Assembly (NCBI GenBank): GCA_965649765.1 | Contig: OZ287748.1 | Span: forward strand, 105,090,001 to 105,154,000 | Origin: Bispira polyomma | Lineage: Eukaryota | Length of the DNA: 64,000 nt | Direction: 5' to 3' | Part shown: positions 30,156 to 62,569 of the stretch, one piece after another | How positions within the stretch are numbered: position 1 is the stretch's first letter | How the letters are laid out: the number at the start of each line of letters is the position of its first letter | Program-made: the position numbers and the translations under genes | The notes under the pieces: generated by a model | Databases searched by the model: none | What the model saw: the letters and a program-made list of their open reading frames with translations, nothing else | Told to the model about the DNA's origin: nothing

Positions 30156-32499
30156 AACTCGCAGATCTTCTAAAGCACAACTAAGTGGTAATAAGGGTGT
30201 AAATAATGTACAGGGTTTTGATTCTAGAATTGTATATAACAGTAGTCATGTTCTGCATGGCAGTGCTTGCTGGAGGATGGATTGGGCTAAATGTCAAAAC
30301 AAGTCATATGCTGATGTACTTAAAAGCTTGTGTCTCTCCAGTTGTGCTATCAAGAATAAAAATCCATGTAATGTCAAAGTTGTAAAAATGTACAGTGATA
30401 GTCAGTTGCCCCAGGTGGGGTCATATGTGTATAAAAACAAAGTTTCAGGTATTGCATGTCATGACCTCCGTGCAAGGTTGCACACAAAAGCCAACAGCTG
30501 TGTCAACAAACCTAGATTTAAAAACCCTAGCCTCATGGACAAACCACTAGTGTCACCAAAACCTAAAAACAACACTCGCTATGTCAACAACCCACAATGG
30601 GTTCTTCCCACTTCTAAAAAATTCACACCTCTAGAGGACAATGGTCCAACTGTTAGTAGCTGGGCCAGTGATATCACTGACAAAACTCAATGTACTGACA
30701 CACACGTAGTCTCACAAAGTATCCAAGCTAAAAGTAGTGTAAATAGTCAGAGACAGGTAAACGCAGACAAATATGACTTGGAATTACAAGTGAAATCCAA
30801 GAGTAGGGATCTCATTAAGCAAGCACGTGAGGTACCTCAGTTCCAGCAGTGGGACGCCCAGAACACAGATAAGTATGGTTTCATTTCGTTAAGCAAACTT
30901 CGTCTTCCTTAAACAGATAAGCGAATTCGTTCAGAGGAAACATTGTTGAAATTATATAGTGTGATCAAAGACCATACTTAGTGGATTATTGGGACAAGCA
31001 GTTACCACTGTTAATACGCTATGGTTTTCCGCTTGATTTCCAATGTGACAGTAAACTCTCCCACAAGGAGCAAAATCATCAATCCGCAGTTCAGTATCCG
31101 GATGACGTCAAGGCGTACTTGGCCGAAGAAACACAACTAGGTGCTATGCTATGCCCTTTTGAACATATTCCAATTGACAACCTTCACATTTTTTATGACT
31201 AGGGAGAAACCTGAGGGGCTCATAGACGAGTCATAATCGACTTGAGTTTTCCTCACGGGGAGTCAGTAAACTCAGCAGTGGCCAAAGACAAATATTTAGA
31301 CACCTCTTTTGCTCTCACTCTTCCCACTATTGATACCATTACCAATAAAATCTCACGCCTAGGTTGTGGTACCTTACTATATAAAATTGACGTCAGTCGA
31401 GCGTTCCATCACGTAAAGATGGACCCGCCTGACTACAACCTGTTAGGACTTAAACTTGAGCACTATTATGTAGATTCCTGCCTGCCGTTCGGTTTTCGGC
31501 ACGGAAGTGCCATATTTCAATGCCTCAGCGATGCCGTTAGATATATTATGAAAAATCACGGCCATGACATCACAAATTACATCGACGACGTAATCAGGTA
31601 CGGTGATGTCATAGAAAGTGAGTGTTCATTCAAAATTTTGTATAACCTTCTACACGAGTTTGGCTTTGCCCTGAGTGAGAAAAAAACTTGTACAGCCTAG
31701 CACAGCAGTTATTTGCCTCGGGGTGTTAGTTGATACAGTTGAGTTAACAGTCTCTTTACCTGAGGAAAAACTTACCAAAAGTAATGTTCTAGTTAAAGAA
31801 TGGCATCACAAAAATACCTGCACAAAGCGAGAACTCCAATCCTTTCTAGGCAAACTGCTATACATTTCCAAATGTGTGAGGGTTTCCTGGGTATTTCTCA
31901 ATCACATGCTTGACGTGCTGAGGTCTGCAGGGGCAAATCAAAAAGTTGAGCTTATCCCCGAGTTCCACCAGGATGTAAACTGGTTTAAGCAATTTTTACC
32001 TAAATTCAATGGTAAGGCCTTCTTTGAACATGATCCAAACACCGATTGCATACAATTGGATGCCTGCTTACAAGGGATGGGGGGTCGTTGCAACAACGAC
32101 ATGTATGAATTTCAGATTCCCTTGGGTTACCTTAATATGACAATAGTACATTTAGAAATGCTTAACATTTTGGTGGCCATCAGACTCTGGAAATCAACCT
32201 GGCGGGGCAAACGTTTAATACTGCAATGTGATAATGCAGCAGTGGTCACCATTTTAAATTCAGGAAAGACCAAAGACTTGACCCTGGCAGCAATTGCCCG
32301 TAATATTTTTATGAAAGTGGCCTCGGTTGATATTAGTCTCAAAACTATGCACATTTTGGGCAGACTGAATACAGTGGCTGACCTCTTGTCGAGATGGCAC
32401 CTTACAGTAGATAGTGACAAAAAATTATCAGAAATACTACCTAATTCAAAGTAGGCAAAAATTAAGCCACACATGCTAGAAATAGACTGGTCTATTTAA
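30121..32499 (+). pseudogene. pol (long N-terminal extension, RT, RNase H) of copy A
   Basis: YGFPLDF, DLSFPHGESVN, KIDVSRAF, CLPFGFRHGS, NYIDD, LDACLQGMGG, IVHLEMLN, CDN, ADLLSRW; ends EIDWSI-TAA at 32497-32499. Confidence 0.93.
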
Positions 32500-32506
32500 T
32501 TTACAG

Positions 32507-33495
32507 ATGTACCCTCTCAGTTAAGAAAGATAACCACTCAAGTTGCAAACAGAACTCACCAGGCTTTCAGACCAGCCACTGAGAGGGCTTATACAAACAT
32601 GTTTAGGATTTTCCTAGCCTTCTGCAGTTTTGCTCAGGTCAGACCTCAGCTTATTACCCCCTCAATTATTCTTTCATTTCTAGAAGTTCTAGCAGTCAAC
32701 CAAGTTTTCACTCCTTCCATAGCAAATTATCTCTCTGCAGTTAAAGCCAAAATGGCCTTATATGGCCTTGATGTCACTTTTTTTAGATCCCAAAATTAAG
32801 TACTACCAGAAGGCCTTAGTCCTTAATAGCCCCTTCAGGGCAAAAATTAAAACAGTCATTGATATACCACTTCTTCAGCAAATGATTCAAATATGTGACA
32901 GCATGTACATGGGACTAAATTTTAAAGCCCTGTATCTCATAGCTTTTTTCTCATTTCTCAGAATATCAAACCTAGTACCCCATTCTGCTGCACAGTTCTC
33001 CCCTCTAGTTCAGCTGGCCAGGGGGACGTGCTATTTGCTCCTCCTGGCCTTCACATTACCATTAAATGGTCTAAAACCCTTCAGTCAAAAAATGTTATCA
33101 AAGTATTAAAAATTCCTACCCTGAATGGGTCCCCTTTGTGTCCGGTGGCAGCCACTAGGATCTTACTAGCAGTTACACCGGGGCATAAAAACTCCCCTCT
33201 CTTTCAAATCAAAAAAAATCAGAAATAGTATCCCATGATTGATACCCAGGTCAGAAAAAACCTTACCTCAATACTCCCCCAATTGGGTCTCCAACAATCT
33301 GCTATATCCTTCCACACCTTCCGTCGTTCAGGTGTCACCCTGGCTTTTAATAGTAATGTACCAATTCAAGACATACAGAGTCATGGCACCTGGACGTCGG
33401 ACTGTGTGTGGAAGTATATCGTTCAGGACCACAATGCCTCTGAGCAGGTGGCCCTCTCCTTCAAGGCCCTACTTTCTAAACCCACTACCTCCTAA
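32507..33495 (+). pseudogene. Tyrosine recombinase of copy A
   Basis: AFRPAT..AY, NYLSAVK, AFFSFLRISNL, KWSKT, LCPV, FHTFRRSG, HGTWTSDCVWKY (catalytic R-H-R-Y). Confidence 0.93.
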
Positions 33496-33499
33496 TTGG

Positions 33500-34287
33500 G
33501 CTTTAGGGCTTTATATACATACTTTTACATTATTAATATATACTTAAATGTTAAATATAAATATTTTGGGCCACCTTAACACCTTATTTAATCTTAAATC
33601 TTTTATATACAGTTATTATATTTCCTTTGGCAACCTTAAAGAAAACCTAAGGTTACCTCATAATTAAAATTCAAATCTAACCCCAACTTTATGTTAGGGC
33701 TAACCTTAAATTCATTAACTTAAACTCAATTTTAGGTAACCCTAACTTCAAGCTAGGATTACCCTAAACTCAAAATTCTTCTTCACCTTAACCTGGAAAC
33801 TTTCAGGCTAAGGTCACCTTAACTCAAATTTTAAAAACCTTCCTCGTGCTTAGGTGGCCCTAAACTCAGTGTGTAAATAAATATTAGATATAACATAGAA
33901 GCATTATAAAGAAGTGCGCATACAACACAAAAGCCGTCAGTGCGCAATTCGTAACCGTACTTTATCTGGGAGAATAGATCACGGATAAATAGTTCCGTCA
34001 GTAGCTACAAAAATAGTTCACAGTAAGTTGGAAATTATCTTAGTATTTGCTCAAAAATATACTGTTGCCAGTTTTATAATAGAAATAAAGTACACGGGCT
34101 TGTACTTTATTGGCGAATCAAGGACAGCCTTTCGGCATAATGGACGAGGGCCGGTAGGCCCTTGTCCATTATTCCGCCGTAAGTCAGTCCTTGATTCACC
34201 AATAAAGTACTGGCCCTTAAACTTTATTTCTACATTAAGCTAATATCCCGAACTCTGCCTTTTTTACTTACCTGTGTTACATCATAG
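33500..34287 (+). repeat. Split direct repeat B1 (B2 at about 35925-36301), interrupted by an insertion
   Basis: CATACTTTTACATTATT...CTTACCTGTGTTACATCATAG present twice; B2 has small deletions. Confidence 0.93.
33907..34237. mobile_element. Insertion of about 330 bp in B1 ending in a hairpin of about 155 nt
   Basis: Absent from B2; CATTA on both sides; palindrome at about 34080-34232 centred on GGGCC-GGTA-GGCCC. Confidence 0.8.
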
Positions 34288-39720: not shown

Positions 39721-42700
39721 TAGATTTACTACCCAATGGCTGGAGGGTGTTATACTAGTCAGGTGGAAAGGTCTTATAATAGCACAGATTTTGGTGCTCG
39801 TGTTGTTACTATAGGTTTTTGTCCAGGTTACCAGTACACGGTCAGACCGACACGCCCCCCCCCCTTTTGTTTTCTCTCTCCACTGTGGGAGGAGTAGGAG
39901 ACGACCATAATCAACACATGCCTAACCACAGGGAGAAAGCCTGATCGGAATTGACTGATTGAGGAGAAAAAAAACTTATAGTGAATAGACAAAAATAAAA
40001 GGCAGCCTAATTACTGAGGGCTAACTTTTTAATTGGTTATAAGGGGAGAGACTAATTACATTGGTCAACTCCTTTCCTTCTTAATTAATAAGAGCAGTGC
40101 CTAATTGTATATTTGGTACTCTTATAATAGAGAATTACTGGAACTGGGGATTAATTACTTCATCCATTGTTCCACTTAATCAACTAATAATTCCCTTGAA
40201 TACGGTAAAGAAAATTTACAACCAATCTAGGGGTCGATTTGCTGGGCAGCTACCACCAGAAGTAGATGGAAACGCTCCTTGTCCTCCCACACAATGTCCT
40301 GCAAGTAGAACTGTGTGAAGGTATTGAGTGATTTTCAATGACAGGCAGAGGGGATTTGTTCTAGAGACATTCGACTTCGGAAGGCTTTGGAGGCAACAAA
40401 GGCTCTAACATCATGGGCTTTAACTTGATGCAAGTTGCATGACACTTCATAGATTGTAACACATAACCATGGTTTTCTTAATCCAGGATGAAATGGTAGC
40501 AGCAAAAATATCCTTCTAAAAACTCTTTTTGAAAGAGACGAAGACTAATTTCTTATCTGTTCTTATATCACTTGTTGTGTCCAAGTAATAACGTAAAGGC
40601 TCTGATCGTGCATAGGGAACGATCCTCTGGGTGAAATCTGTCTACGGACAGGGCTAGGGCCGGTATCTCCACAGGGGCTACACTACCCGGTCCGTCGTGG
40701 CCAGAAAGGAAGGGGAAGAATACACGGAAACTTTTGACCAATCCTGCTCGTGTCTAATGTTCTCATTTACCCAAGCATGTATTTTACTTCTCCGTTTTCC
40801 CGAAGCTAAAGCCATAAGAAAAAAGTGTTTTTTTTTAAGATTAGCCTTCCCTAAAGGTATAAAGGGGGCTTTCGGGAGTTGCTAGAGAAAGGAGAGGTTT
40901 CAAGCTGGAACTCCCGGTCTGTCTTTGGGTTTATCCCTATGGAAACTATCCAGTAGTCCGTTGAGGTTCTCTTCCTTACTGATATTGATCACAAACCGCT
41001 TTTAGCTCTAGGAAAGTTTACGTGCAGTTTCTTTTCCGGGACAGTCCATACGCCTTTTGCAGTCTGCCCATCTATGTATGCGCCCCAGCCTTCGTTTGAG
41101 GAGTCTGTAAAAATCTGCACAGCACAACGAATGGGGTGGAGAGGTTGACCCGGAAAAAAGTTTTTGGGGTCTAACCACCAACTTAGGTGGGTGTGGAGTG
41201 CTAGGGGGATACTCTTCTCCAATGACTCTGGTAACCGCCAGTTGCTTTTGAGGTGCCACTGGAGAGGTCTCATGTGGAGCCTGCCTGATGGCACTAACTT
41301 CTCTATTGATGTTAGGCCTATCAGTGACATGAATTGCCGGACTGAGCAATGGCCTTGGGAAATCAATCTTGTCAGTTACTGCTTTCCCTCTTTCTTGTGT
41401 CGGGCGAACTCGGCCCGATTGGAGGTCGTATTGATAACCCACAAAGTCAAAGACCTGATTGGTTATCAATTCCGACTTCTCCATGTTTAGCAACCAACCT
41501 AGTGTTTGTACTAAAGAGACCAGTTTCTAAGTTTGTTGGTAACAGATTTTCCTGAATGGGGCTCTGATTAACCAGTTGTCTAGGTACTAGTGTAATCGGA
41601 TTTCTGACCTTTGTGCCACGACCTTGACCAGGAAGGTAAACTCTAGGGGGGCAGTGGATAGGCGGAAGGGTAGGGCCTTGAATTGGTAAGTGATTCTGTT
41701 CAAAGAGAATCTTGTGTATTTCCGTGACCTTTTGTTTATGGTGATGTGGAAATACGCATCGCTAAAGTCGATTGAGGTTACCTATTCGTTTGTTTAAAGT
41801 GACAGTCTGATTGATTCTGGGGTTTCCATTTTTACCTTTTTGACCTTGAGATAGAGGTTTAAGGTACGGAGATCTAGAATGGGGCGCCACTTTCCATTTG
41901 GTTTGGGGACCAGGAGGAGGTTGTAAAAACCCAGAGAGCTTAGAGTGGAGACTTTCTCCACAGCTTGTTTGTCTACTATGTTTTGAATGCTTTCTCTTAG
42001 AGCTGCATTTCTCGGAGGATTTTAGTACCCCCTTGTTATCGAGGGAGATCTTGTAAGCGGGGCTTCTTTTGAGAAGAAAGTTAGTACCCGCTTGTATTAA
42101 AGATACAGCACGGGGAATGGCTTCTAGTGACCTTCATTGTTCCCAGTAGGACTGGAAGTGACCTTTCACAGGGGGGTGATTGGCAACATTTCTGACATTT
42201 GAGACAATTGGGGCAAGGCTTAAGTAAGGAGCAAAAGAAAAAACTTTTTAATTGGTCTTTTGTTACAGAAGGTACATGAAAGGCAACAATGTCTCAGAAT
42301 ACATTTGTCTTGGGAGACAGCCGGTGAACACCGGGAACATCTTTTACAATATGTAGAGGTTCTTTTCTACAATATTTACACAATCCATACCATGAAAATT
42401 GTCTGCAATACAAGCACCATTTAAGCTGTTGAGGCCGGGAACCTGTTTTGTAGGGGTGATACTGTGATTGAGAACCACAACATCCCCAGTAGGTGCTCCC
42501 ACGACCGTTTCCACGTCCACGCGGGGCTGAATGGTATGATCCCCATGACGGGGTAGTATCCGGAGCCTGACTAGTAGAGGTAGCCTGCGTAATGGATTGG
42601 TTGGTCATTTGGTACGGGCTGTACCGGCAACTTTAATTCTGGGAGCCAGACTTACTCTGGACCTGAGCGGCAGTAGCTCAGTCTGGCAGATTTCCTCTTC

Positions 42701-44724
42701 CACCGACCGGATGGTAGTGTCTTCGAAAAGACCAGGGATATCAAAGGGCCCATTTTTCAATTTATTTAAGGTATCCGTGCAGATGCCACTCTTGAACAGT
42801 GGTAAATATGTGTCTCTCCTCATTAAAATAACATTGGCAGTGGGAGAGAACATAATGTAGGCCTCGTCTTGGACCAACTTTCCAAAAATGTAGCTCACAT
42901 TCTTGCAGAACTCTTGTCTCTTTAAATGTTCATCAATGTAGGCCGACGACAAGCCCATATAACCCCGGTAGGGTCTCGGCTTGTGAACTGGATTCCTTAA
43001 TCCTAGCTCCAGCGACATACCAGTTCTCATTAAGGTTAGTAGCACACTTGGTGTTGGCCGCACTGTGGTTACAAATTAAGGTTCCTTCCCTGAGGGAACG
43101 TTCCATCTTCCTAATGCCTTCCTGTGGAAGGCGTCTGAGGGGTGGAGCAGTGGAGGACAGCTTGTGCTTGAAAATTCTCTGGCACAAGGAATTGAGAACA
43201 GCTAGAGATGAGGACCACGTCCTGGCAGCCGGGAGGTGGTCGAGTAGGAAAAATTTAGTGACATTTTCCTTTGTGAGTGTATTTGGCGGGTACCATCTCA
43301 GCTGTGATTTCGGGGTCTGATAAACTGATCAGGGTGCAGGGTACCACCCTCTGCCCCTTTGGTGGTGTACCTGTGTGTGGCAACACAATAAAAGTCATTC
43401 CATTTCCTGAGAAGCCACGGGTCGGCAGGAAGTTCAGCTGAAACTTTTCCTACCTGTTGTGATCTAAGACCCTGAAAGGGATTTTCTGTATTTGCAGGGA
43501 GGTGCTCAACATCAGTGATGTGGGTCCATCCCATAAAGTGTCTGATAGACCTCATTAGCATTCTTTCGACACAGTGGTGAGTTCCGGTGATACGTTATTA
43601 GCCTCAGAGGCTAGGTCCTCGTCTTGACCTGGTTGTTGAAATCCAAAAATTTCCCCTTCTTCTTGAGTAGAAAGTTCTATTTCCACTTTTAGGTCAGTGC
43701 CGCTAGATATAACTATAGGGGGGTCTTGAGAGACACAGTAGCTGACACCAAGGCACTTGAGGGTACATATCCGGCAGGAAAGTGGGTATGACCACATTAA
43801 CACTGTCCGCAAAAACTGGGTTGGGTTTTGCTACCAGAGGTCTGGGTACAGTACGAGTAGTCGGAGGGGAGCGCATCTGACCTTTGAAAGACCTTTCTAA
43901 TTAATACAGGCTAACGCTAGTAGCGGTAGTCGCCTGTGTAGTCAGTGGTTTAAAAACCTGTTGTTGAACTGGTGGTTAAACTGGTTTTGGTTGAGTCAAC
44001 ATGAGAATATTCTCCGAAAGCGGTAGGAAGGTCGGTACCATCTTTTGCTCCATGGTGGTCATTCTTTCAGACCACCCTGCAAAGAGAGATTTAATCTCTG
44101 TCATAAGGATAACTGGAGAGATCTGGGGTTCATCAAAACCTGGAGGAGGTCTAACTTCCCTCTTAAATGGAGGAGTGCTGGGAGCCAAATACGAGAGTTC
44201 TTTGAACCCCAGAGGGTGAGACATACAAGTATCTAGTCTAGCGGGAGACTCGCCAGTAGATCCAACAGAGGTGCCAAGAACTGCTTCTAAATCCTTTTCA
44301 ATAATGATTTGTCCTTCAGCAAAAGCTGAACCCACTAAGAGTAAATCCGACTCTGTTTTCTTGACTTTCCCAATTTTGTAGGCAGGTTTAGATATCAGTT
44401 GACGCTGAGATGGGGTGAATTTAAGGCACACCTTTTGTGTTTGGTGTGGACCGGCATATGCCTACGTATACTAGTGTAATAAAATTTACTGTCTAACCTA
44501 CTCTCCAGCTGTTGATTGTTCTTTTCTAGATGGTCCAACTTAGCCATGATCATCTCTAGTGGGTTAGCAATCAAAGTCGACGTAGTGGCGCATACTGTGG
44601 AGGATTCTGGAGCATGTTGCTGATATTCTGTGGTAATCTCGGAAGTTGTTCTGTTCATCAAGCACTTGTTCCCTCGGGCCATGTGTGCCGTAGATTCTTC
44701 TCTTTCAAGTTGCATGTGTGACAA
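39340..44724 (-). mobile_element. DIRS1-type YR retrotransposon, 5' ITR missing, internally deleted
   Basis: gag-like fragments 42605-44724; RT (GKWRPILDL, SIDFSDAYFHI, YLDNWLI); RNH (IFTDSSNEGWGA); YR (ALASGKRRS, HDVRA, CHWKSLNTFTQFY); right ITR and ICR at 39340-39720. Confidence 0.9.
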
Positions 44725-46177: not shown

Positions 46178-47212
46178 AACTAGACCTAGCGCATCAGAGA
46201 ACAGATGCATATTTGCATCCACCAGAAAGAAAAAGCACCCCAGGTAGCAAGCACCCTAGCTGGCACCCAAGTTAGAAGCCTTGGATTTCTTAAAGGGCAT
46301 TTATGCTAAAGCCTTAAATGGCACAAATGGATTTACATTGCAAAACTGTGGGACCAATAATAAGTGTGAGATAGGCACTTTAAAATTTAGCCTACCCGTT
46401 TGACCTTGTACAAGGGGTCCAAGGTCAAACCTGACCACAGCAAAAGATTACCAGCCTATGATTTTCTATAGATTGGTTTCACATCCCAAACCTCTACAAC
46501 CAATAATAAGCAAGATATAGGCACTTTTAAGTTTGACCAAGACTGGTCTTGAACGAGGGGCCCCAAGGTCAAATCTGAGCACATCAAAAGATTCCCAGTC
46601 CATGATTTTCTATAGGTTGCTTTGGTACTCCAAACCTCTTGGACCAATAATAAGTGAGATATAGGCACTTTTAGGTTTGGCCATTACTGTTTGACCTTGA
46701 AAAAGAGGCCAAAGGTCAAATCTGAGCACATCAAAAAGATTCCCTGCTCATGATTTCCTATAGGTTGGTTTAAGATCCCAAACCTCTAGGACCAATATTA
46801 ATCGAGATATAGGCACTTTTAAGTTTGGCCAAAATCGGTCACTTGGGGTACTTTGGCACTCTGTCGATGACCTTGAATAAGGAGATTCAAGGTCAAATGT
46901 CTGCATGCTTATATACAGGACATAAATATCTGTCAAACCTATCACCCGTGAAGAGAGTCAGCCTTTTACAGCTGAGAAACAGACACAGTTAAAAGTCTGA
47001 TTATTTTCAAGAAACGCCTGTGGCGGCCATCTTGCTTTTTTAAAATCAGGCCAAAATCTAGGCAAGTTTTTGTAATAAAGAACATTTTCTGTGAATTTAA
47101 GGAGGTGTAAAAATTTTCCCAGCAGAGAGGTAACGGTAAAATCTCTACACACACTGGTGCGGCGGCTTAACATAATCCATAGTATCCACCAGAGTTATCC
47201 GGTGGATACAAT
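46178..47212 (+). mobile_element. HINE-like element with internal tandem repeats of about 105-110 bp
   Basis: AACTAGACCTAG start; repeats GATATAGGCACTTTTAAGTTTG..TTGACCTTG..CAAGGTCAAA; 3' hairpin GTATCCACCAGAGTTATCCGGTGGATAC. Confidence 0.8.
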
Positions 47213-47801
47213 AATACCTTACAGAGATGAAAACTAAGGCATCTAATCGTATTTTAATTTAATTTTAGGGCAGAATAGGTCGTACTTGACAATTTTATTA
47301 GAATCCATTAGAGACCATGATGTGGATCTCAAAGCTACTTTCACCCGAAACTGATGTAATACTTTAACACAAAGCTGTGTAAACAAGGAAGAAATGGTCC
47401 ATTTTTAGAAGATTTGCCATAATTATACACACATTGATATATGGATTGTATGGCACATAATACGTATTAAGATGACAGTTAAAATGTACCAATCACCAAA
47501 TAACTAAAACATATGTCACTTAGTATAATTTGTACCAATCAGAATGCAAATACGCTACCGATAAACTGAATTAAAAGTCACACAAAAGTTAAGCAGTGTA
47601 GGTCCGACAAAACTCTTTCACACGCAATGTTAATATCAGTAGTGCATTTGTGTGTTTCTATTATTAACCCCTAAAAAAAATACAAAATATATAAACTCAT
47701 TATTCGACATGACAATACAAATGAATATGTTTTGAATGATTTTTACTTTAAATGCACTTTGTTTACATGACACAGTGTCTTCCATTGTTCGTTAAAGCCG
47801 C

Positions 47802-50800
47802 TCATTCTCTCGAGTGGTTGCACCTTGTCTTGCGGTCGGCCTGTTTCAAGTTCACTGACGTATTAAGCTGCTTGGCTCGGAGCCGAGACCAGACAACATG
47901 ATCAGACAGGGCCAGGATCTGCGCGGCCTGCAGTGCTGCCGCCTCTGGGCTGATAACTGTACTACAGCCCAAACCTGAAATAACAAGGCACTGAGTGTGA
48001 AGCGATTCATCAATTCATAAACAACGTCCAATAAATGTAAAACAGATAGAATACACCCAGCCCACCAGAGAGCTTATAAGTCACTTTAAGGCTTTAGTAA
48101 CTCAAACCCAAAAATGATAGCCACTTAACCACGTTTTACATGTTACGACAGAAAAACCTTCAACCTACACTACTTTTGTTATTAAGTCCTCAAAGTCAAT
48201 TTGTAAATACAAGCTTTCAATGTATGATGAGTCAAAATGATAAATGAGGAATTAAATAACAATTCAAGTTCAATTTTATAATTTTTAAGATATGTTTTAA
48301 CAATTTATCAGCAAAGAAAATTACATATAACAAGGAGTAAAATTGTCAGAAAAGTATCAATATTTGTCCAAGTACACCCTTCATAAACGTGACACAAAGC
48401 ACATACATATAAGGCATCAATACTACAATACTGCACACCACCAGATAAACAAAGATTTCAGCATTATTTTGTGTGATTTACTTTTTCTATAAAATTCACT
48501 AATCTCAGAAGTACTCAAAGTTATTATATTGCAAATTCAACATTGAACTAGACCTAGCCCATCAGAGAACCGATGCTATATGTATCCACCATAAATACAA
48601 AGCACCCTAGGTAGCAAGTACCCTAGCTAGCACCCAAGCTAGAAGCCTATGATTTCCAATAAGGCATTTATGCTAAAGCCTTAAATGGCACAAGTGGGTT
48701 TCACATTGCAAACCTGTGGGATCAATAATAAGTGTGACCTATGCACTTTAAAGTTTGGCCTATCCATTTGACCTTGCACGAGAGGTCCAAGGTCAAATCT
48801 GACCACAGCAAAAGATTACCAGACCACGATTCCCTATAGGTTGGTTTCACATCCCAAACCTCTACAACCAATAATAAGCGAGATATAGGCACTTTGAAGT
48901 TTGACCAAGACTGACCTTGAACGAGGGGCCCAAGGTCAAATGAGACTACATGAAAAAATTCCCGGGCTTTGATTTTCTACTGGTTGGTTTCATATTCCAA
49001 ACCTCTAAGACCAGTAATAAGCGAGATATAGGTCAAATCTGAGCACATCAAAAGATTACCAGCCCATGATTTTCTATAGGTTGGTTTGGCACTCTAAACC
49101 TCTGGAACCAATAATAAGTTATCTAGGCACTTTTAAGTTGTGGCCATCCACATTTGACCTTGAACGAAGGGCCCAAGGTCAAAACGGACCATATCAAAAG
49201 ATTCCCAGGCCATGATTTCCTTTAGGTTGGTTCGTATCCAAAACCTGTTTGACCAAAAATAAGAGATATAGGCACTTTTCAGTTTGGCCATCCCTGTTTG
49301 ACCTTGAAGATGAGGCCCAAAGTCAAATCTTAGCATATCAAAAGATTCCCTACTCATGATTTCCTATAGGTTGGTTAGATCCCAAACCTCCAGGAAAAAT
49401 ATTAAGCGAGATATAGGCAGTTTTAAGTTTGGCCAAAATCGGTTACTTGGGGTACTTTGTCACTGTGTCAATGACCTTGAATGAAGAAATTCAAGGTCAA
49501 ATGTCCGCATGCTTATACAGGAGATATATATCTGTTAAACAGATCACCCCTAAAGAGATACGACCTTCTACAGCTGAGAGACAGACACTAATTATCTTCA
49601 AAGAAAAGCCCATGATGGACATCTTGTTTTTCAAAATAAGGCCAACATTACTCGCAGGCAAGCTTTTGTAATAATGAACATTTCCTGTAAATATCAGGAG
49701 ACTAGATGCAAAAGATTTCCTAGGAGAGTGGTAACGGTAAAATCACTACATACAATGACGCGGCGGCGGTGTAACAAAGCGTAATCCAATGTATCCACCG
49801 GAGTTTTAAATTTTGCACAACATACACCAAAACATCAGATATTTTTAACTCCATTTTTTGTCAAGAAGCTATATGGGTGAAAATAAGGATAATTTCATTA
49901 AAATTATAGCTAGCTATTGTTTTACTTTGTATAAACACCCAAATTACCTATTTTAATAATTTGTTTTTCACATAACTTTGCTTTAAACCTGATTTAAACC
50001 ATATAAACTAGCTTATCATCAAGGACTGATCAGAAACTAACCAAAGCTATGTTATAAAATCAGTCATCATGCATTTCCTCTGAACATAAGGTGTAACTTA
50101 TGTAAAAACTATCTACTTTAAGGCCGATAATATAATATTTTGACGAATATCCCCAATTTCCGAAGATATGCATTTGACCAAATCGGCTCTGAAACTTGTT
50201 TTTAAAAGCTAACCCAAGTGAACCATCGATCTTTGGCAAAGATCGTTGCAGCACTACCAAAGATCACCATGGTAGCCACTCACCAGAAGGTAGCCTCAGT
50301 GATGACCACACATCTTGGGCCCCCCAGTCTGGTTTGGTGGGTGGGCAGTTGATGACGGGCCAGGTAGCGTTACCCGCCAGTACGGGACCCAGTCCATTAC
50401 TTCTTCCAGCTACGGCAATAAACACAGTAGGCATGGCCGCACCTGGTAAAGGCATTGTATATAAACCAATGGTTAGACAATTACAGGTGATGTTACCCAC
50501 CAGTACAGGACCAAATCCATTACTTCTCCCAGCTACAGCAATAAACACCACTTAGGAACACCTCCACCTGGTGAAGGTATTGTATAAACTAATGGTTGGA
50601 CATTTACAGGTGTCCCAACACCAAATCTCAAGAATTTTCTTAACCTCAGACAATCTAATTCTTTAACACAATATTTTCAGCTAATTGTCGAGAGACAAAA
50701 TATCTTTGTAAAATACCTTTAGGCGGACTAAACTACTGTTTAAATACACTCTCCAATACACAAGTGTTTGATGTCACAGAATTTGAGGAAAAAAAATATG

Positions 50801-53800
50801 GAATTCCCCTCCAATTTCGCCATTTTGAAAAGAAGTAGTCTGTCATATATACAAATATTATTATATATATTACATTGTTTTAGACAGGCCTGTCGACCTG
50901 TCTACCCTTCGGACTGTCGAATTGTCTACCCTTCAACCTGTCCACCTGTCTACCCTTCGGCCTGTCTACCCTTCGGCCTGTCTACCTGTCTACCCTTCGG
51001 CCTGTCTACCTGTCTACCCTTCGGCCTGTCTACCCTTCGGCCTGTCGACCTGTCTACCCTTCAGCCTGTCTACCCTTCGGCCTATCGACCTGTCTACCCT
51101 TTGGCCTGTCTACCCTTCAGCCTGTCGACCTGTCCACCCTTTGACCTGTCCACCCTTCGGCCTATCGACCTGTCTACACTTCGGCCTGTCTACCTGTCTA
51201 CCCTTCGGCCTGTTGACCTGTCTACCTTTCGGCCTGTCGACCCTTTGGCCTGACTACCTGTCCACCTAGCTAAAAATACAATATTAAACATTTCACCCAC
51301 AAAAATTTGATGTGAAGATATTTTTTTATGTTTTCATGACATGCCAATCTGTCGACATGACAATTTATATATACATATATATATATCACCTATATATGAG
51401 ATGTATATATATATAGAGAAACTATATTTTATCAAATATCTTTTACACATGAATTCCTACACAGAAGTATATGTATTCATACACAGGGAGGGTTATAACA
51501 GCAAAGACAGATCTCCATATGCCTTTACCTTCATACTCGGCCAGTATCTGGAGTGTGTCCTGTGTGGTTTTATGAGCGGACGACACGCGCAGCTCACACG
51601 GCACTCCCAGAGAGGAGCAGACAGCCCGGATCTTCTCACAGTGGTCCATATCCGAGGGAGATCCCATCACCACGGCAACACGACCACGCGGATCACACCT
51701 TAGACTCTATTATATACAGTAGAACCTCTATTATCCAAACTTCTATTATATCCAAATATACGACACTCTCCTAAATTTGTTTACCTATTGTTTTGTACAC
51801 AAATGTGAGCAATCATCGATTAATAGTAGGGGTGAGACGGGCCCTAAAAAAGCACCCCGATTAATCAGTAGCGTCTAACCGGTTCGAAACCGGGTACCCG
51901 TAAATTTAGTATGCACCAATCTCAGAAACCCGTCTAACAAAATGGCGGCTGATGTAAACAAAATCTTACGAAAAATAAAGGCAAATATCTGGGGGAATAT
52001 TGGAAATTAGAAGAAAAACGCATGTTGGGTGCTCTAATTTAACCAAAGTTATTGTTTTGGTGAAGATATTTATAACTAGAAAACGGTTTTTGATAACAAA
52101 AACGAAGCGTCCCTAAAGTTGAAATAATAATGAAATTGTTTAGTGTACAAGGTTTGATATTGTTTAAAAGTTGACATATAAGCAGAATCAGCACTTTTGG
52201 TCAATGTCAGCTCGAAAAGGATCACCATTTCCGAGATGACAGACGTTTTCTAAAAAGACGCAGAAATTGAAGATGGTTGCCCAAATCAAAAATTACTATA
52301 AAAATTTACATAAAAGAAAAATCAGCCCTATGAGTCGAAAAGGAGCTTGAAATCGCTCTATCTAGCACCGTTTCTGAGATAAAGGACATTTTCGAAAAAG
52401 ACGCAGAAATTCAAGATGGCCGCCAAAATGTAACATTTTTTTAAAAGTTTACATTTAAGTAAAATCAACCCTGTGGGTTGAAAATTAGCTCGAAATCGCT
52501 CTATCTAACAACGTTTCTGAGATAACGGACATTTTCGAAAAAGACGCAGAAATTCAAGATGGCCGCCAAAATTTAAATTTTTTCAAAAGTTTACATATAA
52601 GCAAAATCAACCCTGTGGGTCGAAAATGAGCTCGAAATCGCTCTTTCTAGCACCGTTTCCGAGATAACTGACATTTTCAAAAAAGACGCAGAAATTCAAG
52701 ATGGCCGCCAAAAATTGAAAAAATGTTTTAAAAGTTTATGTATAAGAAAAATCAACCCTGTGGGTCGAAAATTAGCTCCAAATTGCTCTATCTAGCACCG
52801 TTTCAGAGATAATGGACATTTAAAAAAAAAACCTTAATTTTTAAAATTTTTGAAATTTAAATCATTTTATATCAGTAACGATCGCATATTTTTGGATGGG
52901 GTAAAAAATAAATAAAAATTCAGGCTATTCTATAAAAGTTACGCGCTGCATGTACTGGTCTAAAATTAAAAATAAAAAAAATCCTCACACGCTCAAAAAA
53001 GCACAAATCAACAAATTTTTTTCCCCATTTTGCATGATTGATCGACCCTGTCAATCAGTCAATTATCACCAGATTGATCTAAAAATTTACGAACATCTAT
53101 GCTTTGGTATTTGCAATGTGCATCCCAAATTTCATTGAACTATGACAAGTACTTCAAAAGAAAAGTTCATAAAAGTGCAAGATGGAGCAAAATAGAGCAA
53201 AATACTCATTTGAAGTACTCAGTACTCATTGAGTACTGGACTTAGAACTGTGAATTTTTTACATCATACATAAAATCAAAAAGTAGATGAATAACTTATA
53301 CCAAGAAAAAGCCGAAATCCCAATAGTTTCCGAGATAGCAAAAAGTACCGATTTTTCGAATTTCAATAAAAATCAATCGGTTGGCAATCAGTCAATTATC
53401 ATCCGATTAATCTCATCAGCGTCTCCCGTCCTGTAAATTGCCTTACTAAGGTACATACCAAATTTCATTAAGCTATAATGAATACTTTTTGAGAAAACCT
53501 AGTAACAAGCACTTTTACACCCCCAGGGTCACTTGACATTTAAGTAGGCCAAAGTTTAAAGCCAAGAATATGAAAAAAATTTCCCACTCCTGGTTAAGAG
53601 AACTGCCAAAAATAATTTTGATGCAGATAATATTGAAGGAGATATTCAAGGAAGACCATGCGGCGGCGGCACAAGCGGCGGTGAGGAAACCAGGGGTGAA
53701 ATCAAATAAGCGCCCTTTTCAAGGGACCCTTAATTACAAGCGATAATATAAGAGTTTTAACTTAAAACATACACGTTTTCGGGTCCTCGAATCGCAAATT

Positions 53801-56800
53801 TCACTCGGGTTTTCCCCAAAATCGGCCCGTAATCGGGTAACCGGTCCCCCGTCTCACCCCTAATTAATAGCAGATCAAAGGTCCATTTCAATCATGGTTT
53901 TTTATCCGCTGCACGCAAGTTATGGAACAACCTACAACAAAATATTAGATGCTCACCTTTTCTTTCAACCCTTAGAAGCAAACTCAAGACCTCTCTCTAC
54001 CAAAAACTTTATTCCACCTAACACCGTCTTGCCATCACCGACTCCATCACTGGTAACGACCCTATTTACAACACGACTACAGAACAATGATTTTAATGGT
54101 TGTGCCTTAGAATGCCCTAGTATGAAAAGTAAGCACCATTACGAAATTGATTAGATTAGAATAACGACTTGACCAAAGATGAAGCAACATAATCAAAAAA
54201 GACAAATCCATCACTTTTAAAAGGGCCTATTAAAAACAAACTTGAAATAACACAATACACTTCATTCCATGCGTTCCTTGGTCAATATTTTACCTTGACC
54301 TTGTCTGCCACCCATTGGAAATTACGTTTGACCTTGTTCAAGTCGTCAGAGGTCACGGTGTCAAGGTCACGGTACACCTGCTTGTCCTTCATGAGTCGCT
54401 TGTCACCAGACGGCCACAGTCGCCAGGAGTCAGAGTCGATGACATCAGCGAGGATGATCTCACCTACCAGAAAGTAACACAAGAACAGAATGGAGTGGAT
54501 GATCTCACCAAACGGAAAGTAACACGAGGACTGAATGGAGTGGATGATCTCACCTATCAGAAAGTAACAAGGACAGAATGGAGTGGATGATCTCACCTAT
54601 CAGAAAGTAACACAAGGACAGAATCGAGTGGATGATCTCACCTACCAGAAAGTAACAAGGACTGAATGGAGTGGATGATCTCACCTACCGGAAAGTAACA
54701 CAAGGACAGAATGAAGTGGATGATCTCACCTACCAGAAAGTAACAAGGACTGAATGGAGTGGATGATCTTACCTAACGGAATGTAACAGAAGGACAGAAT
54801 GGAGTGGATGATCTCACCTAACGGAAAGTAACACAAGGACAGAATGGAGTGGATGATCTCACCTAACGGAAAGTAGCACGAGGACAGAATGGAGTGGATG
54901 ATCTCACATACCAGAAAGTAACGAAAAGACAGAATGGAGTGGATGATCTCACATACCAGAAAGTAACGCAAGGACAGAATGGAGTGGCCCATGTGGCTTT
55001 TCTTGGGGCTTCCGCAAGTGCTAGACAATGAAAATAATTACTGGGCAGCTACAATACTCCTCTATACTCCTTAAGTTTTGCTAATACACATTCTGTTTGT
55101 TTCAGATACCGAAAATTATTTGTTTCTATTATCTACCTAATTGAATGCAGTTTATTATCAGAAGTGAGTTTCGCTAAATAAAACAAGCACATTTCCAATG
55201 ACATTGCAAATAGAAGTTATAAATCTGCAAAAATGTAGCATGACTGGTTATATTTTCTAAATATATTGTACCTGTTTATGTAAGTTAAGGTTTTTCAGCC
55301 ATTTCATGTCCATTGTACCGATACAGCAATATTTACTTTCGGTCAGCAAGAATTTTCGTCTCAATACCGACACCACCGTCCCAACCCTACTTGGAATAAG
55401 CTAGCCAAATAAGTATGTCATACATACTGGTTTTCTTTTATTGTTTCATCATTTTTACAGTTTCTTAAATTTTTACAGCAAAAATCATCTCGCCTTGCAA
55501 AAAATAAATCATAAACAATATCACAAATCTATTTTTGCTGTACAATAGTACATAGAACCTCCACTACCCAATCTGCAGTAAATCTTAGAATGGATTTGAT
55601 GGACATTCTTTCAGTCTCCAAAATTTACTACTACTTGGTATTTTATACTAAACTGCCTCTTATTTTGTCCAAACAACAGTTTCCTTTCCAGTGTTGTTTG
55701 GACAAATGTGATTTTGCTGTGCTATCTTTTAGAGGTGTGACGGGCATGGCCCCAGTAATCGTACAGGTCTAACCATCTCAAATTTGGGTACCCGCAAATT
55801 TAGTATGAACCAATCTAAGAAACCAGCCTGGCAATATGGTGGCTGATGTAAATTTAGATTAAAAATAGCAAATATCAGGAAAACGTATATTGCTTGCAAG
55901 AATTAGAGCAAAATTTTTGTTCTGCTGAAGTGATTTATGACTACAGGCAATCGTGCAAGATATTACAATTCTCAAACATTGCTGAGTTCATAAATTGCTA
56001 GTTTCACTTTGGTTTCCAAACAAATTGGGCGCATTTGGTTTAAATGCTAAAACGATCTATTGGAAGTCAAAAGCAAGAACCGGTTTGACCAAAAAATATA
56101 TAATTAAGAAGAATTATTGCACAAAATTGTGTAGAAACCTTGCAATATCACCATATCTACATCATAACCATCTTATTATGGGCTAATTTAATATATTTTT
56201 GAATTAAAAGTTTTGTGAAAATCAATATCCTGTTTAGAGTTACATTTTTGTTTGTTTTATGTATCATTGGACATTTTCAGGTGGGAACCAAAATTTAAGA
56301 TTTTCGCCCAAACTTTTCTTTTGGAAACCAGTTATAAATAAAATATTCGAATGAAACACTACTTAATATGATGCAGTGCTGTACATCAACCTCAGTGCTT
56401 ACCCGAGCTGGTGTCTACACCAAACTCAATCTTCATGTCAATCAGTGCACAGTCCAGAGACGCCCAGGCCCGCTCTAACACCTCAAACACAGTCACCGTA
56501 GTGCGAGCCATCACATCGTACTCTTCTTGGCCAATCACAGTGTCACCAAACTTAAACTCAGAAGCCAAAATCTGCTCCATAGACCACTGGGGGTCACCAG
56601 CTGCATCATCCTACAACATAACCACAGAGTATGACTCACACTGGGATATAACGACAGAGTGTGACTCACATTGTGATATAACCAGAGTACAGCCACAATC
56701 TGCTCCATGGACCACTGGGATCCACCAGCTGCATCATCCTGGAACATAACCACAGAGGGTGACTCGCACTGACATAAAACCACATAGTATGACTCGCCCT

Positions 56801-59800
56801 GGAGCATAACCAACGAGCGTGACTCACACTAGAAAATAACCACAAAGTATGACTCACACTGGAAAATAACCACAAAATATTGCTCACACTAGAAAATAAC
56901 CACAAAGTATGACTCATCCTGGTGCAAAAAACAAGAGTACAACTCACCCTGTGATATAACCACAGAGTAGAACTTACACTGGAATATAACCATAGGCAAC
57001 CTACATCATATCCACATGTCATCAACCTTTGAGCAGTTGAGCATTACAAATATTAAATAACCGCAAAACGTAAAGCTACTAGTGAGGGTAATTGGTCTGT
57101 CTTTTGCAGGTTAACTAATTGCTTAATTGTCCAACCGATGATCGACCTGTAATCGATTATTCACATAAGTACATATGTTTTTATTGTTAAGTTACCCATC
57201 CTGCCATCCCGGGGGAATATATTGTCCTGGAATCTAGAAGCCTGCCCTACTAATAGGTGCTAGCTATTAATAGTTTTTTTTGCAAAAGATTCTAAAATTC
57301 CTGAAGAGCAAATTTGTGTTTTTCCATTTTTGGCAAAAATTTGAAAATTCGAAATGGCCGCCATTTTTGGGAAGAGACAAATTTTGGGAAAATTGCCAAT
57401 ATCACATTTTTTATATACCCTGTGGGTCGAAAATTTCGACGAAATCGCTCTATCTCGCACGGTTAAGGAGATAGAAGCAATTTGTGTTTTTCCATTTTTG
57501 CCAAAAATTCGAAAATTCAAAATGGCCGCCATTTTTGGTGAGAGCAAAATTGTTTGAAGATTGCCAAGAGTACAATTCTTAGATACCCTGTGGGTCGAAA
57601 ATTTCGACAAAATCATTCTATCTCATACGGTTAAGGCGATAGAAGCAAATTTGTGTTTTTCCATTTTTGGCAAAAATTCGAAAATTCAAAATGGCCGCCA
57701 TTTTTGGGGAGAGGAAAATTTTTTGAAAATTGCCAAAACTACATTTTTTTAGATACCCTGTGGGTCGAAAATTTCGCCAAAATCTCTCTATCTCTCACGG
57801 TTAAAGAGATAGACTGAAATTTGTGTTTTTCCATTTTTGGCAGAAATTCGAAAATTCAAAATGGTCGCCATTTTTGGGGAGAGCAATAAACACCCATACC
57901 AAATTTGGTAAAAATAGGATAAATGACCGGAAACCAAGCGTGACAGACGGCAGACGCTGGAAAAAGCAAATATAATATGTCCACCCCCCACTGGGGTGGA
58001 CATAATAACTATAAGATGAATAGCAATTATTCTGACACACATTTTCTTCAAGTCACAAGACCTCAATTATTCACCCAAGTGAAACACATAATAAATAAAA
58101 CCTTTTTATCAAATTCCAACTGATACATTCTTAACTGAGAAAATGTACTTGCTATAATTCCAGTTTCTAGTAGACAGATAAAATAAAGTAAGTTACATAC
58201 CTTAAAGAAGGTTTCCAGCTTTGGGGGACAGAATCGGTAGCCCTCTTTAACCCCAGGGTTTCTCTTTAGAAATGACCCAGTGGCTACACGTCGTGTCACC
58301 CACTCAATTGGGACCATGTGACAATTGTTGGCCAGGAAGGAGGTGTCATCCGACTGTTGTACAAAGTGGCTTTTGATGCCTACAGAAAACAGAAAGAATT
58401 GCTCATCAGTTTGGAACAATCCATGATAACTTGGCTTACCCACACAGGAACTCTCACTAAATTGCAGTCCTTTAGCAATAAACTAAGGACTTGTACTTTT
58501 ATTTTTAATGATGCTTCTTCTACCATAGTTTAGCTTTCGTATTGGTCGTTTGCAATATTACTTCACCACTTTCGGGCACTGGCTTATAATTGATGCCCCT
58601 TCAATAAGTCCATTTTACGAATCTTCTATTATCTAAATAAAACTTTGCTCTCCAAACATTAGTGGTGTCATCACGAGCGACGATTGCGCACATTCACCGG
58701 TGATGATATGCCTGGGCGATAATCAGGAGTTTACAAATATGTGCAATGCATCTCACACAAATAAAATAAAGAAATGTATATATACATTTAAAGCCCATGG
58801 ATTAGAAAGTAAAATATTTTGCAATATATATTCTATCATATATCAACGAAACGTCCCGAAAACGGTTTTGATCTATTCTAGCATGTATATATCACGTGTA
58901 TCATCGTTAGGAGTACCCCAAAGCACCAACTTCTATATAAGGATATTTAACTTTGACTCGGCAGTAATCGCTCACATATATTACCTTATATCTGTTTTTC
59001 GATGCTGTGGTTATATACAGTACACAGCAAACACGAGTTACAGGTGTAAGTTATTTTAATTTATGTGACTGTAACTTATAAAAACTGTAGTCATGGATAT
59101 GATTATTTAGAAACTGAACAAAATATTTTACTTTAAAAATCCATGTGCTTCAATGACGATAAATACCGCGATATCGCTTACGGTCCACTCCACAGCCTCG
59201 ATTCGCAATATACACTGGCGATGACACCACTACCCAACATGTTCCGATAACAGAGGTTGCACTGTACAAATTTGGAAGAATAGAAATAAAATCACAAACA
59301 ATCGAATATATCCAGTAAACAGAAATTCAGAAAACGTAAGTTCTACAGTTTTTAAGCCAATAGCTATATATATAGATGAAATTGGATTTATAAGCAAAAA
59401 AGAATTGTCAATAAACATTATTAATAAAACTTGCACCATTTTATTAAAGAAACATAATTAAGTGGTTAAAGAATTGGAGAAATATATAAATGTGAACAAA
59501 ATAGGTTGATGTTTTCTCTGCCCTATTGGACACTTGGCTCACCTGCTTCAGCTAGAAACTCAAAGATACGACAGGTGGTGTCCGTGGAGATAGCCGCCTT
59601 TCCCTCCAGATCGTTGCTCCGTGTTGCGTTGTGGGCGGTGATTCTGTCCTTTGACTGTAGCACCACCTGATGGTCATTCCCCACAACACTGTACACCTGC
59701 TTGGTTTTACCTTCTGCCAACAGCTTACCTTTCTCTGCACCTGAAATTTGGTCAAACAGGAAGTAAGAATTAAGCATTCAAAATATGAAGAATACAGAAA

Positions 59801-61734
59801 AACCGGCTCAAGAGACCACCTCTTTATTAGTGAGACCGTCTCTATAGTAGGACCACCTCTATATTAGTGAGACAACCTGAATCTAATGACCACACTTTCA
59901 TTTCCCTGTAGGCTTATATTTAAATATTATCCAATCTCTATATAAACTATAAAGATCACCACCATGTAAATACCACTTTCAGGGTTCCCCTTGGGTGACA
60001 AGTAGGCAGGTTGCTGCTCATGGACTGTCTTAAAAATGAGGACATTTACCTTGAATTTAATACGCATCTTTAGGTAGAGTGCAACCTAGATTGTTGGACC
60101 ATAACATATGAACAAGATACTGCCCACAAAGGAGTCCCTTAAACTCCCTTTCCACCAAGCTAGGCATTTTAATGGGTGCGTGGCTGCTAATGGGAGTTGA
60201 TGGAATGATTTATTGATATTAAAATATCGATCCAACACAGTATTTAAATAGTTTTAGAACAACAACTAAATTAATTATACTGAATGTGACAATAGCCAGC
60301 CTGCACTGGCAGGTAACCCAGCCCAGGTAACCAAGCCAGGTAACCCAGCCCAGGGGTGCTTCCAATTATGTGGATGGGTGTCCCATGAGACTTGTATTTG
60401 AATTGTGTGAAGGTGTGATTATATGGAAATGCCAGGGGAACAAGTAATCCAGACAGGAATACATTGCATAGCCATACAAGAAGTTAGATCACTAACAGAT
60501 GTGAAGCAGAATGCTCATGTTACCATTTGAGGAAGAGGTAGGAAACAAGGATAACTTAGAAGAGTCAGCTATTCAATGAAATAGCAAAGCTATGTACCTT
60601 CCACCAACACAAATTTTTTAATAGTGCCATTACAGTTGGGCTTAGATTTTATTAGCTACATGTAATTTATACAATACACCAAATACCAGAAATCCAGTGA
60701 ACATTTTGGTATGCAGTGCGTCCTCAAGGTATAATTAAATGCCTCAAAAAATCAGTAAATGTGTTAGCAAATTTCACTCCTAAAAATTTGTGAAGGTATA
60801 ATTGCTGGAAGTTAGTCATCATATATGGGTGGCGCTGGCTTCGGCCTACCCTTGGCCTCGGCCACCCAGTAAAATCAATACAAAGTAAGTGTAAACATCA
60901 AAATGGCCGAAGCCAAGGGTAGGCCGAAACCAGCGCCACCTGCGTACAAGATCCAGTCTATAGTACACACAAACACTGTGAATGGCATCTCCTTCTAACA
61001 TGATTACTTGACATGTGGTAAAACTCTGCGTATAAAGAATTTACCAGGCTTTGTCGGGTACCATTCCTATAGTATCAATTGCTGTAGTGATCTGTATTTT
61101 ACTTTGACTGATAAATTAATTATATTGATCCCTAGCTAGAACAGGCAAAAAGCCACAATGGTAGTCTGTGAATTTAAGGCTCTGAGTAGAAGATGGATAT
61201 CTTCAGCAATATAAATAGTTTATTTGTGGAGTTATTATAACTGTCATACACTACTTTTAGTGTGAAGAACATATATATTGTTAGTATATTTAAAATCTTC
61301 ATTATTTATTTTATTTATTTCTGAGAACTTGTCAAAAATTAGTATCATTTAAAATATAAATTGGTAATTAAAAGCAGTGCATGTGTATACCATAAACTAG
61401 TATATGCCCTATAGATATTCCCAGACTGATCACAACATAGTCAATAAAATTAAATACTGCAGTGGTACTGACACATTAATACACACAGGAAATCACACAA
61501 TATAGAACAGATGAAAGAAGTGTACTGAACCCATTGACCCCCTCCCCCACACCCTCCTATACACACACAAAACACAGATTTGTAAAGTGCACTTTCATAC
61601 CACTAAACTGACGAACATGTAACTTATGTAGTCATTGTAGACATGCATCAAGCTTTTAAAAACAACCTCTTCAAATAGTCGTCTTTTGAAGCTGCTCAAA
61701 ACGATAAATAATCACTTCTTTACTTACCACTCAT
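47802..61734 (-). CDS. PAICS: Bifunctional SAICAR synthetase / AIR carboxylase; exons 61734-61728, 59740-59543, 58379-58201, 56610-56403, 54463-54294, 51706-51529, 50442-50284, 47974-47802; 423 aa
   Basis: All introns GT-AG; exon lengths sum to 1272 nt in frame. [91 protein letters not shown]. Confidence 0.97.
48546..49807 (+). mobile_element. HINE-like element (same family as 46178) in PAICS intron 7
   Basis: AACTAGACCTAG start, more repeat units, 3' hairpin truncated after GTATCCACCGGAG. Confidence 0.8.
50443..50612 (-). repeat. 125-bp tandem duplication of the PAICS exon 7 acceptor and 5' half
   Basis: Second CCAG|GT at 50568/50567 followed by [19 protein letters not shown]-encoding sequence with a 2-nt insertion. 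Confidence 0.9.
50888..51268. repeat. Minisatellite of CCTGTCTA / CCCTTCGG 8-mer modules in PAICS intron 6
   Basis: Direct tandem repeats of 16-24 bp; they explain the two low-complexity ORFs here. Confidence 0.95.
51827..53862. mobile_element. Non-autonomous hAT element (15-bp TIR, 8-bp TSD)
   Basis: TAGGGGTGAGACGGG ... CCCGTCTCACCCCTA, flanked by ATTAATAG at 51819-51826 and 53863-53870. Confidence 0.9.
52074..53733 (+). mobile_element. HINE-like element with repeats of about 132 bp nested in the hAT element
   Basis: AACTAGAAA start; about 5 units containing AAAAGACGCAGAAATTCAAGATGGCCGCC; 3' hairpin CCCTTTTCAAGGG. Confidence 0.6.
53895..54160 (+). mobile_element. 3' end of an L2-type LINE
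   Basis: A.KLWNNL..NIR...KLKT C-terminal motif and (ATTAG)n tail. Confidence 0.65.
54452..54987 (-). repeat. Minisatellite of 12 x 43-45 bp containing the PAICS exon 5 splice acceptor
   Basis: Units start at 54452, 54497, 54542, 54585, 54630, 54673, 54718, 54761, 54806, 54851, 54896, 54941; sense consensus ..TGTTACTTTCTGGTAG|GTGAGATCATCC. Confidence 0.95.
55730..55852 (+). mobile_element. Decayed left end of the same hAT family
   Basis: TAGAGGTGTGACGGG..GGGTACCCG.AAATTTAGTATG..GGCTGATGTAAA matches 51827-51958. Confidence 0.7.
56611..56995 (-). repeat. 30-bp minisatellite (about 12 units) at the PAICS exon 4 acceptor, with an embedded partial exon copy
   Basis: Sense unit TGTGAGTCATACTCTGTGGTTATGTTCCAG; copy of the first 47-48 nt of exon 4 at 56738-56691. 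Confidence 0.9.
57232..58008 (+). mobile_element. HINE/pearl-like element with about 3.5 repeats of about 169 bp
   Basis: Repeats with CAAAATGGCCGCC and CCCTGTGGGTCGAAAA; short CAGACGG microsatellite; terminal hairpin TATGTCCACCCC-CCACT-GGGGTGGACATA. Confidence 0.8.
60828..60940 (-). repeat. 37-bp GC-rich inverted repeat with a 39-nt spacer in PAICS intron 1
   Basis: 60828-60864 versus 60904-60940, two mismatches. Confidence 0.9.
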
Positions 61735-62432: not shown

Positions 62433-62569
62433 ATGGCGGCGGCAGTAAATGCAGACAGTGGGATGCAGGAGGCGTGTGGAGTGTTTGGATGTGTTGGTGC
62501 CGGTAGCTGGCCCACTCAGCTGGAGATAGGCAGTATCATCAGTATGGGACTCACTGGATTGCAGCACAG
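62433..62569 (+). CDS. PPAT: Amidophosphoribosyltransferase exon 1 (gene continues beyond the window)
   Basis: MAAAVNADSGMQEA-CGVFGCVGAGSWPTQLEIGSIISMGLTGLQHR: propeptide, Ntn Cys and LQHR motif; phase-2 donor AG|GTTTGT. Confidence 0.95.

Follow-up and report, generated by a model that had tools for sequence, protein, structure and literature searches.

Why should three of the seven splice acceptors of one housekeeping gene carry tandem copies of their own intron-exon junction, when none of its seven donors does? The question is raised by PAICS in a 64,000-nucleotide stretch of the Bispira polyomma genome (assembly GCA_965649765.1, contig OZ287748.1, positions 105,090,001 to 105,154,000, forward strand), which we call the window and in which positions are counted from its first letter. 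Our answer, which we hold to be probable though far from assured, is that the repeats at exons 4, 5 and 7 are three independent mirage minisatellites, a type described in lancelets, that arose by microhomology-mediated local duplication and have been tolerated through exon definition and nonsense-mediated mRNA decay (NMD).

PAICS lies on the minus strand, with eight exons, GT-AG introns and an open frame of 423 amino acids (Table 1). All seven exons scanned against domain models were matched, exons 2 to 5 by SAICAR_synt and exons 6 to 8 by AIRC (exon 8 below the curated cut-off), and the closest homologues among the 120 matches listed were 68-73% identical. In the protein trees, which included no named lancelet row, the sequence fell once into a weak group (support 83/86) with the annelid Ridgeia, a brachiopod and echinoderms; FastTree placed it in a clade with Ridgeia and two metagenomic loci, L069 and L078 (support 0.74).

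The duplications were located with 30-nt probes centred on each PAICS splice site, a copy being a match of ≥70% identity within 1 kb. Copies were found at three of the seven acceptors: one at exon 4 (at -128), eleven at exon 5 and one at exon 7 (at -125); the same probe found none at the seven donors. Calls by Tandem Repeats Finder (TRF) agreed with the arrays detected in this way. The three unit sequences are mutually unrelated (shuffle p = 0.35, 0.06 and 0.90), and no significant matches to them were found elsewhere in the window; on these two grounds a common mobile-element origin was rejected. The original prediction, that these three acceptors had been duplicated in tandem with unrelated units and that no true donor had been, was therefore borne out, with the addition that donor-like GT motifs do lie inside the exon 4 and exon 5 arrays.

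Each array has its own anatomy. The 30-bp units at exon 4 are in essence the final 30 bases of the intron, with exon likeness of about 5 nt at most; AG ends 10 of the 11 upstream units, and in 7 of the 11 a GTRAG begins one base past the unit end. Every exon 5 unit joins 31-33 nt of intron end to 12 nt of exon start. GTRAG begins all 11 upstream units, and AG is retained directly before it in 8 of these 11 decoys (our term for the upstream acceptor copies). The units alternate between 43 and 45 bp at a mean pairwise identity of 0.83, and one pair is identical; the alternation and the identical pair suggest unequal exchange. The single decoy at exon 7 has kept its AG (1/1). Homology at the duplication joints amounts to 5-6 nt at exon 7 (ACCTG) and 2 nt at exon 5, and is approximate at exon 4. 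Overall, the repeat copies are about 77-89% alike.

Table 1. PAICS exons and acceptor-associated repeats, in window positions.
Feature	Position	Strand	Basis
Coding exon 1 (ATG + 4 nt), putative	61728..61734	-	open reading frame (ORF) and GTAAGT donor
Exon 2, junctions unduplicated	59543..59740	-	ORF, junction probe, domain scan
Exon 3, junctions unduplicated	58201..58379	-	ORF, junction probe, domain scan
Exon 4, intact copy	56403..56610	-	ORF, domain scan
Exon 4 acceptor array, intronic part: ~11 upstream 30-bp units and a higher-order 128-bp duplication	56611..57000	-	TRF, alignment
Exon 4 decoy: copy of first ~48 nt of exon 4, acceptor 56738	56691..56738	-	junction probe, alignment
Exon 4, candidate in-frame pseudo-exon of 69 nt, from the decoy acceptor to GTGAGT at 56669, with a 59-nt mini-intron after it	56670..56738	-	predicted
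Exon 5, intact copy; starts with donor-like GTGAG	54294..54463	-	ORF, domain scan
Exon 5 acceptor minisatellite, 12 units of 43-45 bp	54452..54987	-	TRF, junction probe
Exon 6, unduplicated, weak acceptor (score -3.5)	51529..51706	-	ORF, junction probe
Exon 7, intact copy; CTAAC at -35	50284..50442	-	ORF, domain scan
Exon 7 decoy: ~42 nt intron end + ~83 nt exon start, unit 125 bp, acceptor 50567	50485..50612	-	junction probe, alignment
Exon 8, last coding exon, unduplicated	about 47800..47974	-	ORF, junction probe, domain scan

At all three duplicated acceptors the intact copy is the exon-proximal one, and the upstream copies are decaying. The exon 7 decoy carries a +2 frameshift and has Phe in place of an invariant Leu; four of its five CpGs are mutated, with no changes in the reverse direction, and the branch-like CTAAC kept upstream of the true site is altered in it. 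In the exon 4 decoy an invariant Asp-Pro has become Gly-Ser. Use of a decoy is predicted to bring in a premature stop in 17 of 18 cases (19 decoys exist; that at 56948 was left out), and only the exon 5 decoy at -90 is in frame. The last acceptor is probably the one that is spliced. Introns 3, 4 and 6 stand at identical codons in orthologous loci, insect-like ones included; these introns are therefore old, and the arrays expanded within them without creating any.

These features can be accommodated by a simple sequence of events. In repeat-rich introns, short local duplications would arise by microhomology-mediated slippage or repair. Where such a duplication spans an acceptor, the complete exon would be the most downstream copy, the only one that has the exon's donor to pair with. 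Exon definition favours an acceptor paired with the exon's donor, and should keep choosing that copy; occasional use of a decoy would lead to a premature stop and to removal of the product by NMD. Given exon definition and NMD of decoy products, duplication of an acceptor would be nearly neutral. Unequal exchange may then expand some duplications into minisatellites (exon 5, and the 30-mers of exon 4) as the upstream copies decay, and machinery specific to acceptors would not be needed. Some excess of copies at junctions is in fact expected under local duplication and tolerance, because conservation of the exon in which a copy is anchored should keep that copy recognisable for longer.

How large that excess is depends on the background chosen, and all chance values given here are post hoc, coming from one gene that was chosen because it looked odd. 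An upstream-only copy is present for 2.9% of positions across the window and for 6% of those in PAICS introns; under these two backgrounds the probability of at least three duplicated acceptors in seven is 0.0008 and 0.006, respectively. Counting all 14 splice sites gave p 0.007-0.06, a lenient null in which any nearby copy counted gave p 0.02-0.29, and an array-based null gave p = 0.007 for acceptors and 0.048 for either end. Tandem arrays make up 27% of PAICS intron sequence and, with the three acceptor arrays removed, a nearby copy is still present at 16-22% of intron positions. Among acceptor-like YAG sites of the window that are not splice sites, 4 of 135 have an upstream-only copy. A tyrosinase-like gene in the window has copies at none of its four acceptors and four donors (boundaries approximate, drawn by eye), and no junction copy was found at the first donor of the neighbouring gene PPAT. 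The excess over local background is moderate. A preference for acceptors over donors is not established (three of seven against none of seven; one-sided Fisher p = 0.096, not significant). Of the two processes initially proposed, a survival filter that keeps duplications where the last acceptor wins agrees with the intact downstream copies and decaying upstream ones, while a mutational process focused on acceptors is left unproven by this test and by the pooled one below. Nor did PAICS bear out an enrichment at AG^GT acceptors (^ marks the junction), for which a test had been suggested: two of four are duplicated, against one of the three others, and we rejected such a preference.

We then turned to orthologues. 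A metagenome scan gave 80 loci. The tally covers 20 of them that have introns and omits transcript-like contigs lacking introns, matches that were distant or prokaryote-like, and five apparent duplicates (L041, L063, L065, L066, L068). From 134 sites called, 14 without an intron were dropped, and two donors may be off by a few bases. One of 61 acceptors proved to be duplicated and none of 59 donors; with close relatives merged into 15 groups, the counts were 1 of 49 and 0 of 46 (1 of 95 sites). These rates are lower bounds, since repeats break up short-read contigs. When the annelid-like loci were pooled post hoc, the count was 4 of 15 acceptors against 0 of 13 donors (p = 0.067). The annelid-like locus L080 (positions 1-243) has an 85-bp array at the same exon 4 acceptor, in at least 2.9 copies, each of 22 nt of intron and 63 nt of exon. 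The same locus (at about 625-655) has a 24-nt copy of the exon 4 junction 454 nt downstream, with short homologies on its flanks; the near-identical L078 has 9 nt there instead, and the copy looks to be an insertion made by templated repair. Separately, intronic minisatellites that do not span the junction lie about 5-120 nt from PAICS splice sites in L062 (3897-4129), L072 (1260-1453) and L073 (5080-5135 and 5347-5435), and 2 of 120 protein models (P0001, moth; P0044, cockroach) have internal duplications that end at or span PAICS exon junctions, possibly similar events or annotation artefacts.

Several observations weigh against local duplication followed by tolerance as the whole account. 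Three of seven acceptors exceed an edge-aware background (p 0.0008-0.007, acceptors alone) and also the orthologue rate of 1 in 49 (p = 0.005, a comparison biased by gene selection and by repeat-broken short-read contigs), and the four PAICS cases seen in all are acceptors, with no donors. The array of L080 at the same acceptor is independent, with an 85-bp unit that differs from the exon 4 unit of the window; its 24-nt insertion is the strongest sign that mutation may be focused there, though it is one event. By an acceptor matrix trained on 52 orthologous acceptors, several decoys equal or outscore the true sites (exon 4 decoy 56738, 9.1 against 7.9; two exon 5 decoys, 6.1 against 5.1), so local sequence strength does not explain the choice. 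Finally, simple decay fits poorly with the exon 7 decoy (50552-50567), which begins Gly-Gly-Val-Pro and retains a near-invariant Gly of homologues (Gly-x-Gly-Val-Pro), whereas the working exon (50427-50442) reads Ala-Ala-Met-Pro, with six differences from the decoy in 9 nt at the exon start. The idea that these first decoy codons serve as a micro-exon was rejected, as no in-frame route was found by inspection.

Mutation might be focused on splice junctions at both ends, through breaks or template switching at the junctions of transcribed genes in this lineage, with the split of three to none a matter of sampling. Such a focus would account for the excess over all 14 sites and for the array and templated insertion of one junction in L080, the insertion having no counterpart in L078, and mirages at both ends are described in four lancelet loci (PMC3087553, PMC3902484). 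The evidence nevertheless comes from a single gene picked post hoc, the tyrosinase-like neighbour (possibly tissue-restricted, and with boundaries placed approximately) contributes none of eight sites, and the merged orthologues contribute only one of 95; we regard a focus on both ends as unlikely. A process specific to acceptors, whether mutation aimed at 3' splice sites or the purging of donor duplications alongside tolerance of acceptor ones, draws on the one-sided counts in this gene, in the merged orthologues and in the annelid-like group, and on the rarity of upstream-only copies at non-splice YAG sites. Neither Fisher test reaches significance, however, an AG^GT preference is absent, and both human F7 (PMC1557585) and lancelet genes (PMC3087553, PMC3902484) tolerate arrays on the donor side, all of which makes an acceptor-specific process improbable in our view. 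A broader proposal is that annelid-like lineages have, in the 3' splice junctions of their transcribed genes, a hot spot of templated repair or template switching; the junctions would be copied both in tandem and nearby, seeding acceptor-biased minisatellites genome-wide. We would not expect this to hold, but if it did, splicing-coupled mutation would shape intron growth and provide thousands of natural tests of last-acceptor choice. A genome-wide acceptor excess, if true, would tie mutation to splicing; a single gene is insufficient to show that.

The decoys might also be used, and be tolerated or selected for that reason, either in recursive splicing, where joining to an exon 5 decoy (AG^GTRAG) would recreate a 5' splice site from which the intron remainder is removed, or in regulated isoforms that include the 69-nt pseudo-exon of exon 4 or the in-frame exon 5 decoy at -90. 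Exons of a recursive-splicing class (RS-exons) have been described (PMC6224609), and the donor-like hexamer at the start of all 11 exon 5 units scores 6.4-6.6, above five of the seven true PAICS donors; the GTRAG motifs in 7 of 11 exon 4 units point the same way. Against use of the decoys, the donor of the exon 7 decoy is weak (1.1), the exon parts of decoys decay and AG has been lost from 3 of 11 exon 5 units. Moreover, the true exon 5 and several orthologues start with a similar donor-like motif, so the GTRAG is a coding legacy, and we think regulated or recursive use very unlikely. Active purging of decoy AGs was considered and rejected because the pattern is inconsistent, the nearest decoy lacking AG at exon 5 and having it at exons 4 and 7. 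An assembly artefact can be set aside almost entirely: the exon 5 copy number is known from the assembly alone, but copies as diverged as these, with directional decay, are not what mis-assembly produces. Of four sequencing runs listed for the sequence, three from a single study, possibly its source and so not independent support, contained 66-78% of the sequence words searched and one contained a small share; no RNA run was among them.

Other features of the window were recorded in passing. The first exon of PPAT (amidophosphoribosyltransferase; 62433-62569, plus strand, E = 1.4e-8) lies head-to-head with PAICS, about 700 bp apart, an arrangement that vertebrates likewise have. The acceptor of PAICS exon 6 (51707-51760, minus strand) nearly lacks a pyrimidine tract; sequence like a transposon end starts about 10 nt upstream of it, a resemblance that is unconfirmed, as a partner inverted repeat was sought and none was found. 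Intron 5 holds, at 51827-53862, an element of 2.0 kb that is bounded by perfect 15-nt terminal inverted repeats and contains an array of 4.2 copies of 143 bp; further arrays of 143-168 bp occur at 46351-46831, 48769-49435 and 57307-57883. In intron 6 there is, at 50887-51267, a compound minisatellite of 8, 16 and 24 bp, purely intronic and unrelated to splice sites. The tyrosinase-like gene (14900-20925, plus strand; PF00264) is multi-exon and secreted, and its tail is rich in Cys; an assembly gap falls within it, at about 19855-19997. Degenerate retrotransposon-like ORFs at 3200-8400, 29200-33500 and 41000-44500 appear by eye to be of reverse-transcriptase and tyrosine-recombinase-like type, DIRS-like.

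Repeats of this general kind have been reported before, at both ends of exons, so the feature is not without precedent. The original description of the amphioxus Adh3 mirage is reportedly that of Canestro 2002. Amphioxus mirage minisatellites occur in Adh3, the globin genes BflGb6 and BflGb9, troponin C and PGBD5 (PMC3087553; PMC3902484 adds PGBD5 and troponin C), with units of 10-160 bp at a 5' or 3' boundary (Fig. 6 legend), many but not all of which carry AG/GT; splicing of the host gene is undisturbed, and their origin was called unclear (PMC3087553). Length polymorphism between haplotypes is a further mark of the type. Human repeats at exon-intron boundaries and internal tandem repeats are also on record (PMC2812944). 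We found no literature on genome-wide counts of mirages at acceptors versus donors, or on mirages in annelids, within a search in which coverage of subscription papers was limited.

Three further systems bear on how the PAICS repeats should be read. In human F7, a 37-bp variable number of tandem repeats in intervening sequence 7 (IVS7) is a splice-site minisatellite on the donor side, with extra sites that could function yet stay silent; the site nearest the exon prevails, which was explained by 5'-to-3' scanning (PMC1557585). The F7 and PAICS repeats both span splice sites, although F7 does so at a donor and PAICS at none of its seven. Simple scanning at acceptors would choose the upstream, wrong copy, so exon definition must be invoked in PAICS. 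The Rogers model derives introns from tandem duplication of AG^GT (cited in PMC3087553). The duplicated segment contains AG^GT at PAICS exons 5 and 7 and AG^GA at exon 4; intron gain by this route was rejected, as introns 3, 4 and 6 are old, at the same codons in orthologues, and the copies lie inside them. RS-exons, which are repressed by the exon junction complex (PMC6224609), resemble exon 5 and its eight AG-bearing decoys in having AG followed by a donor-like GTRAG.

The closest likeness is to the lancelet mirages themselves. In PAICS, tandem duplication runs across the intron-exon boundary at exons 4 (128 bp), 5 (43-45 bp) and 7 (125 bp); the units of 30, 43-45, 125 and 128 bp fall inside the published range of 10-160 bp (PMC3087553); and AG is present in 10/11, 8/11 and 1/1 units, respectively, again many but not all. 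The exon 5 cluster shares turnover and homogenisation with mirages, and that of BflGb6 has the same acceptor-side layout, the 3' end of an intron joined to the start of an exon. Unlike the lancelet cases, this PAICS comes from a host whose protein groups loosely with annelids; it has three affected acceptors and no donor within one housekeeping gene, and its splicing is read from sequence alone. Judged by structure, the PAICS repeats match the mirage type and would be a further example outside lancelets, in which 19 upstream AG decoys before essential exons offer a natural test of 3' splice-site choice.

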